From NCBI GenBank assembly GCA_947473325.1, contig CANJEJ010000005.1:1-60590 (forward strand): a DNA stretch of 60,590 bases. Direction: 5' to 3'. The position numbers and the translations under genes are program-made. The DNA comes from Alphaproteobacteria bacterium (lineage in GTDB: Bacteria > Pseudomonadota > Alphaproteobacteria > SHVP01). Below are positions 1,100 to 6,354 of the stretch, one piece after another (position 1 is the stretch's first letter; each line of letters starts with the position of its first letter). Under the pieces are notes generated by a model. That model saw only the letters and a list, made by a program, of their open reading frames with translations. It was not told the DNA's origin and made no database searches.

Positions 1100-1549
1100 A
1101 TGCTGTCGTGGTTGTTCGTGTTGCAGGTCGCCATTGCCGGCGCCCTGATCCCGGTCCAGTCGTCGGTCAACGCGCAGCTCGGACGTGTCGTCGGGCATCC
1201 GCTGGGTGCGGCGATGATGAATTTCATCGTCGGCCTTGCCGTGCTGATCACCATGTCGGCGGTGCTGCGCGCGCCCTTCCCCACTCCGGCGCGGCTGTCC
1301 GAGGCGCCGTTCTGGATGATCGTGGGCGGCGGCGTGATGGGGTCGTTCTTCGTCTTCACCGCGCTGTTCCTGACGCCGAAGCTGGGCGCGGCAACGCTGG
1401 TGGCGGGCATCATGGCGGGCCAGATCGTCGGCTCGCTGGTCATCGACCATTTCGGCCTGTTCGGCCTGCCGCAGCACGAAGTGAATGTCGGCCGCATCGC
1501 CGGCGTGCTGCTGCTGATCGCGGGCGTGGTGCTGGTGCGGAAGTTCTAG
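1100..1549 (+). CDS. DMT-superfamily inner membrane exporter (YdcZ/DUF606-like)
   Basis: AGALIPVQSSVNAQL, GGVMG, GQIVGSLVIDHFG motifs; about 5 TM segments; AGGAG RBS. Confidence 0.85.
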   Translation: MLSWLFVLQVAIAGALIPVQSSVNAQLGRVVGHPLGAAMMNFIVGLAVLITMSAVLRAPFPTPARLSEAPFWMIVGGGVMGSFFVFTALFLTPKLGAATLVAGIMAGQIVGSLVIDHFGLFGLPQHEVNVGRIAGVLLLIAGVVLVRKF

Positions 1550-1597
1550 AAGCCCGCGGCTCATCGGCTCAAGTGAGCGTCATCCCGCGTACAAACA

Positions 1598-1654
1598 AAA
1601 ACGGCGGCCATCGGCCACCGCTGAAAATAGAACGGCGGCCCCGAGGGGCCGCCG
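1598..1654 (-). terminator. Two tandem intrinsic terminators downstream of the histone-like gene
   Basis: Minus strand CGGCGGCCCC-TC-GGGGCCGCCG-TTCTATTTT, then GCGGTGGCC-GAT-GGCCGCCGTTTTTGTTT. Confidence 0.7.
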
Positions 1655-1778
1655 ATCACTTGGTCTTAGACGTTGAAAGCCCGCCTCTAGGCCACCCGGC
1701 GATTACCAAACCGGTCGTAGATGACGACCGTAGTGAGTGACGTGGGCTTTTGTTGTGCGGCTGTCTTCGTCGAAACCG

Positions 1779-1991
1779 TTAAGCCTTTTTTGCGGCCTTA
1801 CGCTTCGCGGGCTTGCGGGTCGCCTTCTTGGCGGCCGGCTTGCGCGCGGTCGTCTTGCGAGCCGTCGTCTTGCGGGCGGTGGTCTTCCGCGCCGTCTTCT
1901 TCGCCGCGGGCTTACGAGCCGTGGTCTTCTTCGCCGCCGGCTTCTTACGCTTCACAGTCTTCTTGGCCGCAGCCGTTTTCATCATCGCCAT
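1779..1991 (-). CDS. Small Lys/Ala/Arg-rich histone H1-like nucleoid protein (70 aa)
   Basis: MAMMKTAAAKKTVKRKKPAAKK(TTARK)n... with KPAAKK and TTARK repeats; strong GGAGGG RBS. Confidence 0.8.
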   Translation of the reverse strand: MAMMKTAAAKKTVKRKKPAAKKTTARKPAAKKTARKTTARKTTARKTTARKPAAKKATRKPAKRKAAKKA

Positions 1992-2075
1992 GGAACCCTC
2001 CAATTTGGTCCTCAATGCGGTCACAGGTGCTCACGCGTAATCACAGAACCACGCGAAAGTGGATTGATGCTAATC

Positions 2076-2338
2076 GATTCTTTTGCGTTCGTCACGCGAA
2101 AGTTGACAACTTTCTCCGAATATCACAGTCGCCACTTGGGACGAGTCCTTTGTCGGCAAGTGCAGCACAGCGCGACTCGGCTCTGATTCATCTTCGCGAC
2201 AGGAGTCGGACAAGGCGAGCAGACACGATTCAACTGGTCGCCGCCAAGGACTCGCAGGCTGCGTCCCGACTCGAAACAGGACTCGCGTGGCCATTACTTG
2301 AGTCGTTGTCCGATTCAGTTTGAAGAGTCCTAGGACTC
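2076..2338. promoter_or_regulatory. Dense array of 13 GANTC (CcrM-type methylation) sites upstream of the histone-like gene
   Basis: GANTC at 2076, 2143, 2174, 2185, 2203, 2227, 2249, 2268, 2280, 2300, 2312, 2325, 2334. Confidence 0.7.
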
Positions 2339-2404
2339 CCGGAGGGACCGTGACCGCCGTTACTATCCGCACGAAAAATCAATGTATTTCAGCCTGTTAG
2401 CTTC

Positions 2405-3172
2405 TCAGGGTGTGAGGCCGCCACCGTTCACATACAACACTTGGCCGGTCATGTAGCGGGCCGCGGGCCCCGCCAGGAACAGGATCGGGCCCACGACATC
2501 TTCGACGACCCCAAGTCTTCGCAGCGGGATTGCTTGCAAGTACTGGGAGAAGTCGCGCTGCCAGTTTTCGTTGTCGACGCGGCCCGTGCCGCCGGCGAGA
2601 AACGCGGTGTCGATGGCCGACGGCGCGACGGCATTGGCGCGCAGCCGCGGTGCATTTTCCACCGCGAGCGCCTTGGTGAGCGCGATGACGCCCGCCTTCG
2701 ACGCCGCATAAGGCCCGTAGCCGGCGAGCACGCGCGTCGCCAGGCCGGACGACATGTTGACGATGGCGCCGCCGTCCTTCATGCGCGGCACAGCCGCGCG
2801 GCAGATCAGGAAAGCCGCGCGCAGGTTGCCGGCGATGACTTCGTCCCAGGATTCAAGGCTTCGCGCATCTACCGGCGCAAGGTCATGGTTGAAGCCCACC
2901 AGCATCACCAGCACGTCGAACACGCCCACCCGGCCAAAGGCCGTGTCGATCGAGACCGGGTCGAAGGCGTCGATGGCGTGAAAATCTACGCCCGCCGGCA
3001 CCGGATGGCGGGCCTGCGACGCGGCGAGGTCTAGCACGGTGACGCGCAGGTCCGACTCAAGTGCCGCCCGCACCACGCCGCGGCCGATGCCACCACAGCC
3101 ACCGGCCACGACCATGTGGCTGCCGGGCGCCGGCCCGAGTCGGCGGAAATCGGGATGGGGCAGATCGCTCAT
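2405..3172 (-). CDS. SDR family oxidoreductase
   Basis: AGGCGGIG Rossmann motif, YAASK catalytic motif, TGQVLYVNGG C-terminus. Confidence 0.9.
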   Translation of the reverse strand: MSDLPHPDFRRLGPAPGSHMVVAGGCGGIGRGVVRAALESDLRVTVLDLAASQARHPVPAGVDFHAIDAFDPVSIDTAFGRVGVFDVLVMLVGFNHDLAPVDARSLESWDEVIAGNLRAAFLICRAAVPRMKDGGAIVNMSSGLATRVLAGYGPYAASKAGVIALTKALAVENAPRLRANAVAPSAIDTAFLAGGTGRVDNENWQRDFSQYLQAIPLRRLGVVEDVVGPILFLAGPAARYMTGQVLYVNGGGLTP

Positions 3173-3264
3173 GCGAACCTCAATGGTTTGGAAACCGTTA
3201 CGCTTGGCCCGGCCCCGCGACCGGGTCTATACGGGACGCGAACCGCATTCCGCCGGAACCGACC

Positions 3265-4958: not shown

Positions 4959-5606
4959 TCAGACCGGGCGCGGCAGGGTGACGCCCACCATGCAGTCGCG
5001 GGTAATGAGGCCGGCCAGCGCCGCTTCGTCGAGCTTCTCGCTGCCCTTGGGCAGCATCGGCAGCACGAGGTAGCGCATGTCGGCGGTCGAATCGACGACG
5101 CGGATCTCGACATCGTCGCCGATCGTGGTGCCGAATTCCTGCAGCACAGCGCGCGGCTCGACGACGACGCGGGCGCGATATTCCGTGCTCTTGTACCAGT
5201 CGGGCGGCGGGCCGAGCAGCACGCGCGGATAGCAGGAGCACAGCGTGCAGACCACGACATGGTGCACCTGGGGCGTGTTCTCGAGGACGATCAGGTTCGG
5301 CTCCGGGCCGCCGAGGTCGTAGCCCAGCTCCTCGATCGCCTTCTTCGAACCCGTGAGCAGGCGCTGCTTGAAGGCGGGGTCGCGCCAGGCGCGGGCGATG
5401 ACGCGGGCGCCATCGGCCGGCGACACGGTGGCGCCCTGGTCGATCACGCGGCGCACATCGTCGGCGGTGAATAGGCCCTTTTCGATCAGCAGCTCGCGGA
5501 TCGCGCGCTCCAGCAGGGCGAATTCCTTCGCCTCGGCGTCCTGCTCGATCGGCGCGTGGTCGTCATGGTCGTGGTCATGGTCGTGATGGTCATGCGGGCC
5601 GGACAT
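4959..5606 (-). CDS. nthA: Cobalt-type nitrile hydratase alpha subunit / thiocyanate hydrolase gamma-like subunit
   Basis: VVCTLCSCYP metal-binding motif, PPDWYKS.EYRAR, GARVIARAW; His/Asp-rich N-terminus. Confidence 0.92.
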   Translation of the reverse strand: MSGPHDHHDHDHDHDDHAPIEQDAEAKEFALLERAIRELLIEKGLFTADDVRRVIDQGATVSPADGARVIARAWRDPAFKQRLLTGSKKAIEELGYDLGGPEPNLIVLENTPQVHHVVVCTLCSCYPRVLLGPPPDWYKSTEYRARVVVEPRAVLQEFGTTIGDDVEIRVVDSTADMRYLVLPMLPKGSEKLDEAALAGLITRDCMVGVTLPRPV

Positions 5607-5618
5607 GGTGGGTTTCCT

Positions 5619-5906
5619 TCAGCGCGCCGGCTCGAGCCAGTGTTCATAGATATCGGCCGACACGGTGTCGGCAGCGGGGCCCTTGTAGCCCGGCCACACC
5701 TCGGCCTGCTTGAAACGGATCAGGTACAGCGGCCGCTTGGGCAGGCCGGGCTTGCCGAAGGCGAGTTCTTCCGGGTTGCGGAATTCGCCCCAGCGCTCCT
5801 CGACCACCCCGGTCTTGCCGCGGATATAGAAAGGCGTGCGGATATGGCCGGGCGGATCGCCGGCCAGCACGCGCACCTTGTCGCCGACGGCGTAGCGGTA
5901 GCTCAT
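5619..5906 (-). CDS. NHase beta C-terminal SH3-like domain as a separate subunit (ScnA-like)
   Basis: YAVGDKVRV, GHIRTPFYIRGKTGVV, PLYLIRF..EVW, DIYEHWLEP; ATGA overlap with the upstream gene. Confidence 0.88.
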   Translation of the reverse strand: MSYRYAVGDKVRVLAGDPPGHIRTPFYIRGKTGVVEERWGEFRNPEELAFGKPGLPKRPLYLIRFKQAEVWPGYKGPAADTVSADIYEHWLEPAR

Positions 5907-6211
5907 GCCTCCGCTCCGTTTTTCTTGTAGGAGGCGATGCGCGCCTCGATCTGCGCGGGCGTGAGCACGCCCTTCTCGGTCAGAATCATGCGCATGGCCG
6001 ACAGCCATTTCTGGTAGTAGCTGAGGCGGTAATAGTCGTCGCCCAGCGATTCAATGCAGCGGCGAAGCTCGTCGACCCGGTAGAGCCGCGCACCATAGCC
6101 GCCCATCAGGCGCTGCAGCGCATCGACATGTCTGTCGAACGGGGTAAGGCTGTGTTCGCTGCGGTCGACAGGGCCGAAGTCCTTGCCGCCGACGTCATGC
6201 GGTCCGGGCAT
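5903..6211 (-). CDS. NHase beta N-terminal domain as a separate subunit (ScnB-like)
   Basis: HDVGG..FGPVD, DELRRCIESL, YYRLSYYQKWL, LTEKGVLT. Confidence 0.85.
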   Translation of the reverse strand: MPGPHDVGGKDFGPVDRSEHSLTPFDRHVDALQRLMGGYGARLYRVDELRRCIESLGDDYYRLSYYQKWLSAMRMILTEKGVLTPAQIEARIASYKKNGAEA

Positions 6212-6354
6212 GGCGCCATTACACGGCCATGCGCGGCCTTCGTCAATGTGATTGCGCGGGTGACGCCCACCCTTGTGCCTGCCGATGCAGGCTGGTATTG
6301 CGCTGGTCCACCACCCGGCATGCCGGCGTCGCCGCACCAGCAAACAGGCCTCCC

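Follow-up and report, generated by a model that had tools for sequence, protein, structure and literature searches.

No epigenetic cell-cycle signal of bacteria has been studied better than methylation by CcrM, and the promoters placed under its control together with GcrA in Caulobacter include ctrA P1, dnaA and ftsZ/mipZ. GcrA is the only known reader of methylated GANTC, the sequence that CcrM recognizes. In Escherichia coli, the GATC clusters of oriC and of the dnaA promoter are bound by SeqA when hemimethylated, with sites no more than about 31 bp apart and on one face of the helix. Here we consider a 60,590-nucleotide stretch of the genome of an uncultured freshwater alphaproteobacterium (contig CANJEJ010000005.1; hereafter the window), in which 13 GANTC sites crowd into 263 bp upstream of a gene for a small basic protein that resembles histone H1. 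For organisms with CcrM, the main text of PMC3973325 describes GANTC as depleted genome-wide and enriched between genes, and the largest promoter cluster described in the literature consulted has four GANTC sites, in promoter P169 of CCNA_00169 (10.1101/091785).

Set beside the Caulobacter CcrM/GcrA promoters, the locus shares the methylase family, the motif, the placement of sites in or near a promoter, the depletion of the motif from the genome and the presence of clusters at division genes. It differs in scale, since the Caulobacter promoters in the published accounts we drew on, in part, carry one to four sites against 13 here, and in geometry, since most sites here are located well upstream of the core promoter. 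Caulobacter moreover uses GcrA, whereas the order to which the source genome belongs is without a detected GcrA, and the target here is an H1-like gene, of which a control search with the Pfam HC2 profile found no example in Caulobacter. The E. coli clusters offer dense methylase sites, short spacings and same-face phasing, as here, and timing after passage of the fork is plausible in both; but they are built on GATC, Dam, SeqA and the origin, whereas this array is built on GANTC and CcrM, SeqA was not found, and the array is not at an origin. The MucR-shielded sites of Caulobacter, Sinorhizobium and Brucella are likewise clustered GANTC in an AT-richer promoter, and MucR is encoded here, but the density of the array is about 3 times that of the best case described in the portions of that literature consulted. 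As for the protein, it is short, Lys/Ala-rich, repetitive and basic like chlamydial Hc1/Hc2 and the H1-like proteins of Burkholderia and Bordetella, but it scores below the curated cut-offs of the Hc2 and H1-like families, and its apparent relatives run from 54 to 277 amino acids (aa). No histone-like target and no array of such density is described in the main texts, as distinct from the supplementary tables, of the CcrM/GANTC literature searched (PMC3973325, 10.1101/091785, 10.1101/2024.03.01.583015, PMC11514494, PMC7987155, PMC2877005, PMC9516812), which agrees with an earlier reading of these letters alone (the sequence-only reading) that knew of no described system of this form. The array looks, from its sequence, like an instance of CcrM epigenetic control that is notable for its size, for its conserved link to an H1-like gene and for its occurrence in an order where GcrA was not found. 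We would put at roughly 0.55 the probability that this homotypic cluster of CcrM sites makes transcription of the H1-like gene dependent, by way of a reader other than GcrA, on the state of methylation and replication.

The pentamers, 4 GATTC, 4 GAGTC and 5 GACTC, begin at positions 2076, 2143, 2174, 2185, 2203, 2227, 2249, 2268, 2280, 2300, 2312, 2325 and 2334; the spacings, in order, are 67, 31, 11, 18, 24, 22, 19, 12, 20, 12, 13 and 9 bp, 11 of the 12 being 31 bp or less. The count, the kinds and the offsets from the site at 2143 given in the sequence-only reading were all reproduced. From local base composition, 0.99 GANTC would be expected in these 263 bp, and the Poisson probability of at least 13 is 5.6e-11, or about 2e-4 once multiplied by all 3.73e6 starting positions in the genome. 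The genome scanned was the source assembly, G000 (3.73 Mb in 301 contigs, 90% complete, 65.8% GC), which is depleted of the motif, with 7464 GANTC (2.0/kb) against a mononucleotide expectation of 11,799; across the whole window there are 129, against 253 +/- 16 in dinucleotide shuffles. The densest 263 bp of the genome is the array, and the runner-up, with 6 sites, occurs at four other places. In a control scan of 16 palindromic motifs of the form XYNY'X', 11 of the rest, those that occur fewer than 12,000 times, peaked at 5 to 8 per 263 bp. The array stands alone as an extreme outlier in a genome that elsewhere avoids GANTC, which answers the genome-wide density check proposed in the sequence-only reading. 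Outside it, G000 contains 28 triple-GANTC clusters, no commoner than triples of similar motifs. The sites also differ in kind from those of the genome at large, with G or C as the middle base in 9 of 13 compared with 28% of GANTC genome-wide (binomial 0.0024). A repeated or mobile element was ruled out, since blastn of the genome returns the array stretch once, as a single copy. Within the array, the claim that the spacers are not repeated is largely true, apart from short flanks that do recur: AGGACTCGC is present twice exactly and once at 89%, and the two outermost sites together form a 14-bp palindrome. The intergenic spacer that holds the array is 413 bp long and has 54% GC against 66% for the genome. 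A 100-aa minus-strand open reading frame (ORF) over the array, at 2070-2372, had no Pfam match and lies in a region of low GC, and was treated as spurious.

The sequence-only reading placed these sites on one face of the helix. At 10.5 bp per turn, 9 of the 11 offsets do fall within 0.2 turn of an integer (binomial 0.006, post hoc). The Rayleigh R of the array sites is 0.56 at 10.5 bp and reaches its maximum, 0.74, at 10.7 bp. Compared with sites scattered at random over an equal span, phasing in the band of 10 to 11 bp has a p of about 0.001-0.004; permutation of the observed spacings gives p = 0.05-0.19, a weak test in which each spacing retains its own residue. One-face phasing is thus significant in the source genome, near 10.7 bp, and in no relative.

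Conservation is most informative in a sister genus, where all 8 species have an H1-like gene behind a dehydrogenase gene, with 4-8 GANTC upstream of it. Four of these sites align in 8/8 species. At the aligned sites the G, A, T and C are invariant at 16/16 positions and the N at 1/4, while 24/118 of the other array columns are invariant; the Fisher p of 3e-10 for this difference is overstated, as the 8 species are kin and not independent. The pattern points to selection on the CcrM recognition sequence itself, as opposed to an extended operator or a motif in RNA, and because G/A/T/C is kept while N varies, the array would act on DNA and not on RNA. Two of the window sites, 2143 (AAGGACTCG) and 2227 (GAATC), align with sister-genus sites at a similar distance from the conserved promoter, and the only feature common to the mixed pentamer kinds of the array is GANTC. 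A closer comparison is provided by a congener, known from a metagenome contig (L069) that encodes a 54-aa protein close to the H1-like protein of the window. Its spacer is collinear with that of the window without gaps, 310/465 positions being identical, and carries 5 GANTC, of which 3 are in register with window sites 2174, 2203 and 2280; at most other window sites, the congener differs from GANTC by one or two substitutions. From this alignment, the extra sites of the source lineage arose through point substitutions, with positions that turn over, and the 13-site size is specific to that lineage. Such turnover by substitution means that selection on the number of sites, that is, on avidity, fits better than a fixed architecture. 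The earlier expectation of the same array in relatives is therefore borne out in part: GANTC clusters recur upstream of the relatives' H1-like genes and their G-A-N-T-C is under apparent selection, but the 13-site size does not recur. A search for the conserved ribosome-binding-site stretch with up to 3 mismatches in G001, G002, G005, G006 and G007 returned no match, and hence no second array from the genus of the source was obtained from those genomes. The proteins themselves (L006-L016, L061-L075) have a conserved N-terminus and a repeat region that accounts for the range from 54 to 277 aa among close relatives, so the repeat number appears to evolve fast.

The association extends beyond the sister genus. 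In L016, from a second genus of the family, 5 GANTC lie upstream of the H1-like gene, and another family (L021) has 7, all of them GAATC/GATTC. Class-wide, one genome per family was sampled (n = 121); the HC2 profile had matches in 38/121, from which 30 loci were retrieved. A composition filter left 15 ORFs from the 30 HC2 loci, and five of these were removed as not H1-like or in the wrong frame (one each from L033, L034, L047 and L052, and the plus-strand ORF of L050). For another nine small Lys/Ala-rich ORFs, the GANTC counts in the upstream 400 bp are 1, 3, 1, 1, 1, 1, 5, 2 and 7. Ten lineages pooled (L026, L027, L028, L036, L037, L038, L041, L050, L021 and L016; the pool excludes L044, from a genome without a CcrM match, and the window itself) give 32 GANTC in 4000 bp upstream (8.0/kb), compared with 39 in the remaining 27,351 bp of those loci (1.43/kb); leaving out L050, from unpublished genome G055, gives 25 in 3600 bp, or 6.9/kb. 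Since the intergenic GANTC excess given in the main text of PMC3973325 is about 1.5-fold, the excess upstream of H1-like genes appears to stand above the usual intergenic bias, the background here being the rest of the loci and not matched intergenic sequence. The same text notes several GANTC in the Caulobacter origin, Cori. A replication origin was rejected for the array, as the cluster travels with the H1-like gene across genomic contexts; no DnaA-box search was made.

The genome does encode ccrM, a point that the sequence-only reading had left to be checked. The gene is split over the ends of contigs C58 (C58:9-437, L002) and C94 (C94:15-251, L003), and the halves overlap by a few residues, as would be expected of an assembly break and not of a broken gene. 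The N-terminal half matches the solved CcrM 6pbd (E = 7e-85), and the best match of the two halves is NCBIfam CcrM NF050803, at positions 2-166 and 162-349, each under the cut-off for the whole protein. The flanking ORFs are RNase HII-like (rnhB-like) and MutY-like (mutY-like), as named from their translations, and two GANTC lie just upstream of the ccrM start (L002 positions 563 and 572). A match to the C-terminal half of CcrM was found in 15/17 genomes of the order. The reader is another matter. GcrA, the reader named at the outset, must be dropped: PF07750 was found in 0/17 genomes of the order, which is the whole family (11 of them at least 90% complete), including G000. At the class level, GcrA was found in 81/121 genomes, and 15 of the 88 CcrM-positive genomes sampled are without a GcrA match, a combination that is uncommon but not unique; it is seen in 13 further class-level families, with one genome each. 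The SeqA domain (PF03925) was not found in G000, at 90% completeness, and MucR is encoded (PF05443, E = 7.8e-52). A separate observation concerns a second adenine or cytosine methylase of the genome, a 589-aa N6_N4 methyltransferase at G000:C4:67505-69274 (L001 1297-3066) adjoining a helicase-like ORF; the two look like a type III-like restriction-modification pair, and no link to GANTC was seen.

GANTC clusters elsewhere keep cell-cycle company. Next in density to the array in G000 are a cluster of 6 sites in 80 bp (G000:C81:13566-13640), 11-85 bp upstream of a DivIC/FtsB gene, and one of 6 sites in 92 bp (G000:C98:2693-2784), within the 5′ region of a gene for a LysM-M23 peptidase; in a relative, 6 sites in 70 bp (G003:C56:41407-41476) occupy the 5′ region of another M23 (LytM-type) peptidase gene. 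The abstract of PMC4551980 places cell-division genes within the CcrM regulon of Caulobacter. The ftsB and M23 clusters suggest a division-gene methylation regulon without GcrA, and the H1-like gene may be placed in this cell-cycle set by association.

The sequence-only reading correctly put the array upstream of the H1-like gene, which is on the minus strand: the 13 sites are 89-347 bp upstream of its ATG, which is preceded by a GGAGGG ribosome-binding site. The HC2 (PF07382) match of the protein is 30.5 bits, against a cut-off of 40, and the matches to NCBIfam Hc2 and Burkholderia H1-like models (NF038052, NF038053) are 26.2 against 135 and 19.5 against 80. Because these scores fall under every curated cut-off, the likeness is compositional, and "H1-like" is best taken as a description of composition and not as a family assignment. 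An order-wide protein search with this sequence returned only its self-match, low complexity being what defeats such a search, and the HC2 profile search was substituted for it to find H1-like genes. A sigma-70-like core promoter, with a start site expected near 2060, is predicted from alignment alone (Table 1), no sigma-70 site having been called at the gene by a consensus promoter scan. The GANTC site at 2076-2080 falls within its 17-bp spacer, just upstream of the -10, and the remaining 12 lie about 70-280 bp upstream of it. The direct repeat that flanks it may be an operator; both CACGCGAAAGT copies are retained in congener L069 and are recognizable in the sister genus. The order of a short-chain dehydrogenase (SDR) gene followed by the H1-like gene is also found at the 8 sister-genus loci and in the congener.

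Array-region sequence occurs in metagenomes from freshwater, lakes, estuaries and drinking water, and six metatranscriptome runs contain part of it. The RNA evidence consists of assembled contigs from 4 runs in 3 studies, so that depth, strand and uncovered parts (within 1500-3200, these are 2048-2168 and the SDR gene beyond 2412) are uninformative; within those terms, RNA of the H1-like gene is present. The contigs of two studies end at 2046/2047, where a conserved leader starts, which is a weak hint of the 5′ end, and the 5′ untranslated region from about 2047 to the ATG is conserved in alignment with the sister genus. The RNA over 2169-2365 is separate from the H1-like contig and could come from an upstream promoter, from the 3′ end of the dehydrogenase transcript or from an antisense RNA. 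No stable fold of 2165-2370 was found on either strand (z of +1.07 and -0.14 versus shuffles), an Rfam scan of 1500-3000 gave two chance-level hits (E 0.66-0.67), neither of them in the array, and a search of the genome found no CsrA. A structured RNA or a CsrB/RsmZ-type sponge was ruled out on the unstable fold and the failure to find CsrA.

Table 1. Features at the array locus, in window coordinates.
Feature	Position	Strand	Evidence or remarks
GANTC array (13 CcrM target sites)	2076..2338	.	pentamer count and genome-wide outlier
H1-like gene, 70 aa, Lys/Ala/Thr/Arg-rich	1779..1991	-	ATG 1991-1989, stop 1781-1779
Extent of H1-like mRNA in RNA-library contigs	1664..2047	- (assumed from gene)	X15 1666-2046, X16 1663-2003, X17 1664-2047, X19 1665-2037
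Second RNA-contig stretch, over the distal 10 array sites	2169..2365	.	X16 2169-2365, X15 2198-2359, one study
Perfect 14-bp palindrome GAGTCCTAGGACTC	2325..2338	.	two outermost sites; reverse-strand self-match
Predicted -35 GTGACG	2090..2095	-	aligns with GTGACT in 7 sister-genus species; 17-bp spacer to -10
Predicted -10 TAGCAT	2067..2072	-	aligns with sister-genus TACGAT at the same spacing; congener has TAGAGT overlapping GAGTC
Direct repeat CACGCGAAAGT(G/T)GA	2050-2063 and 2093-2106	.	43 bp apart; flanks predicted core promoter
Terminator-like GC hairpin and T-run	1633..1654	-	downstream of H1-like gene
Short-chain dehydrogenase gene	2405..3172	-	upstream bound of spacer; syntenic neighbour, outside the mechanism

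Farther along the window, at 4959-6343 on the minus strand, there are ORFs resembling nitrile hydratase subunits, with a His-rich N-terminus and typical motifs, as judged from translations.

How the coupling of the H1-like gene to methylation state might work can be set out simply. CcrM would methylate both strands of each GANTC late in S phase, and the passing replication fork would render the 13 sites hemimethylated up to the following burst of CcrM. A factor sensitive to methylation could then bind many individually weak sites, disposed roughly on one face of the helix, and bring about a sharp change in promoter activity, whereby synthesis of the H1-like protein would be coupled to replication or to the state of the cell cycle. 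The array probably ties production of the H1-like protein to DNA replication. Inferred in this scheme are that the sites are methylated in vivo and that transcription responds, as well as the sign of the response, the reader itself and the timing. A far more specific version, which we hold to be doubtful, is a bacterial form of replication-coupled "histone" synthesis: a protein unrelated to GcrA and SeqA would read hemimethylated or fully methylated GANTC, bind cooperatively along one face of the phased array and, in the interval from fork passage to the burst of CcrM, activate or shut off the H1-like gene, and the same reader would serve the ftsB and LytM/M23 clusters and replace GcrA in CcrM-positive, GcrA-negative lineages.

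Several results weigh against this coupling. Because GcrA was not found in the order, the reader is hypothetical and cannot be GcrA. Array size varies, from 5 in the congener and 4-8 in the sister genus to a single site in family member L010, there near a short basic ORF, and the smaller arrays of the relatives show no significant phasing (R 0.44-0.80, p 0.10-0.83). In the sister-genus genomes G003, G008, G012 and G014 there are 42-66 triple-GANTC clusters, against 8-11 for a reversed control pattern, and the H1-like cluster is one of those 42-66 and not special among them. A single upstream site is all that is present in 5/9 of the other class-level H1-like ORFs, and outside the class the two usable H1-like ORFs have 1 and 0 sites, too few to count. 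Moreover, with RNA contigs over 2169-2365, some of the array may itself be transcribed.

The alternatives must be judged on the same evidence. In shielding of the MucR type, MucR would coat the AT-richer region, silence the H1-like gene and keep the sites hypomethylated, with methylation upon access antagonizing rebinding, as at Caulobacter P169. The elements are at hand, in that MucR is encoded and the intergenic region has the low GC noted above, and precedents are available: in the main text of 10.1101/091785, MucR1/2 occlude the four GANTC of the CCNA_00169 promoter from CcrM, and in that of 10.1101/2024.03.01.583015, hypomethylated sites are shielded by MucR in Brucella. Shielding alone gives no account of G/A/T/C being kept while N drifts, nor of at least 8 extra sites gained by substitution in the source lineage. 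MucR is not known to recognize GANTC, and we regard shielding as possible but improbable as the explanation; it is compatible with transcriptional coupling through a methylation reader, and the two can coexist. Another alternative is sequestration on the model of the E. coli clusters, in which hemimethylated, phased sites would be bound by a SeqA-like protein, or would themselves alter DNA bending or stability without any reader, so that the promoter would be silent during some of the cycle. Spacings of 31 bp or less in 11 of 12 cases, phasing near 10.7 bp (p about 0.001-0.004) and the failure to find GcrA are what one would expect on this account, but PF03925 was not found in the 90% complete genome, the arrays of relatives are without significant phasing, and the rapid turnover of sites is easier to square with binding that depends on their number than with a fixed architecture; we consider it rather unlikely.

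More conventional readings fare worse. The pentamers might be the core of a longer transcription-factor site, such as AGGACTCG, found 3 times in the array when its complement is counted, or they might act in RNA, as GGA or hairpin elements within a leader or small RNA from 2169-2365, where RNA contigs do exist and where several sites have AGGA contexts. Such an ordinary motif is hard to reconcile with the mixture of GATTC, GAGTC and GACTC, with an N that varies at conserved sites or with another family whose 7 sites are all GAATC/GATTC; AGGACTCG is not enriched elsewhere (60 genome-wide), and on the RNA side the fold is no better than shuffles, the array has no Rfam match, CsrA was not found and both orientations of the sites occur. 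We think it very unlikely. That the array is the product of chance or neutral accumulation without function, a notion for which the strong differences in size among close relatives might speak, is scarcely credible against a probability of about 2e-4 after genome-wide correction in a genome that avoids GANTC, a ceiling of 8 for comparable motifs and GANTC-specific conservation in the sister genus.

What sets this locus apart is threefold: a 13-site array that selection appears to have built by point substitutions, a nucleoid-coating protein as the putative target, and an order that has CcrM without a detected GcrA. The class-wide GANTC excess suggests that the H1-like gene be added to the CcrM regulon as a conserved member, one that the model organisms could not have revealed, because the HC2 search found no such gene in Caulobacter. 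In the search for the reader, the array would be a ready-made, high-avidity bait. If the array is indeed read, it would point to a second, undiscovered reader of N6-methyladenine in Alphaproteobacteria, and the locus would be a bacterial counterpart of replication-coupled histone supply.

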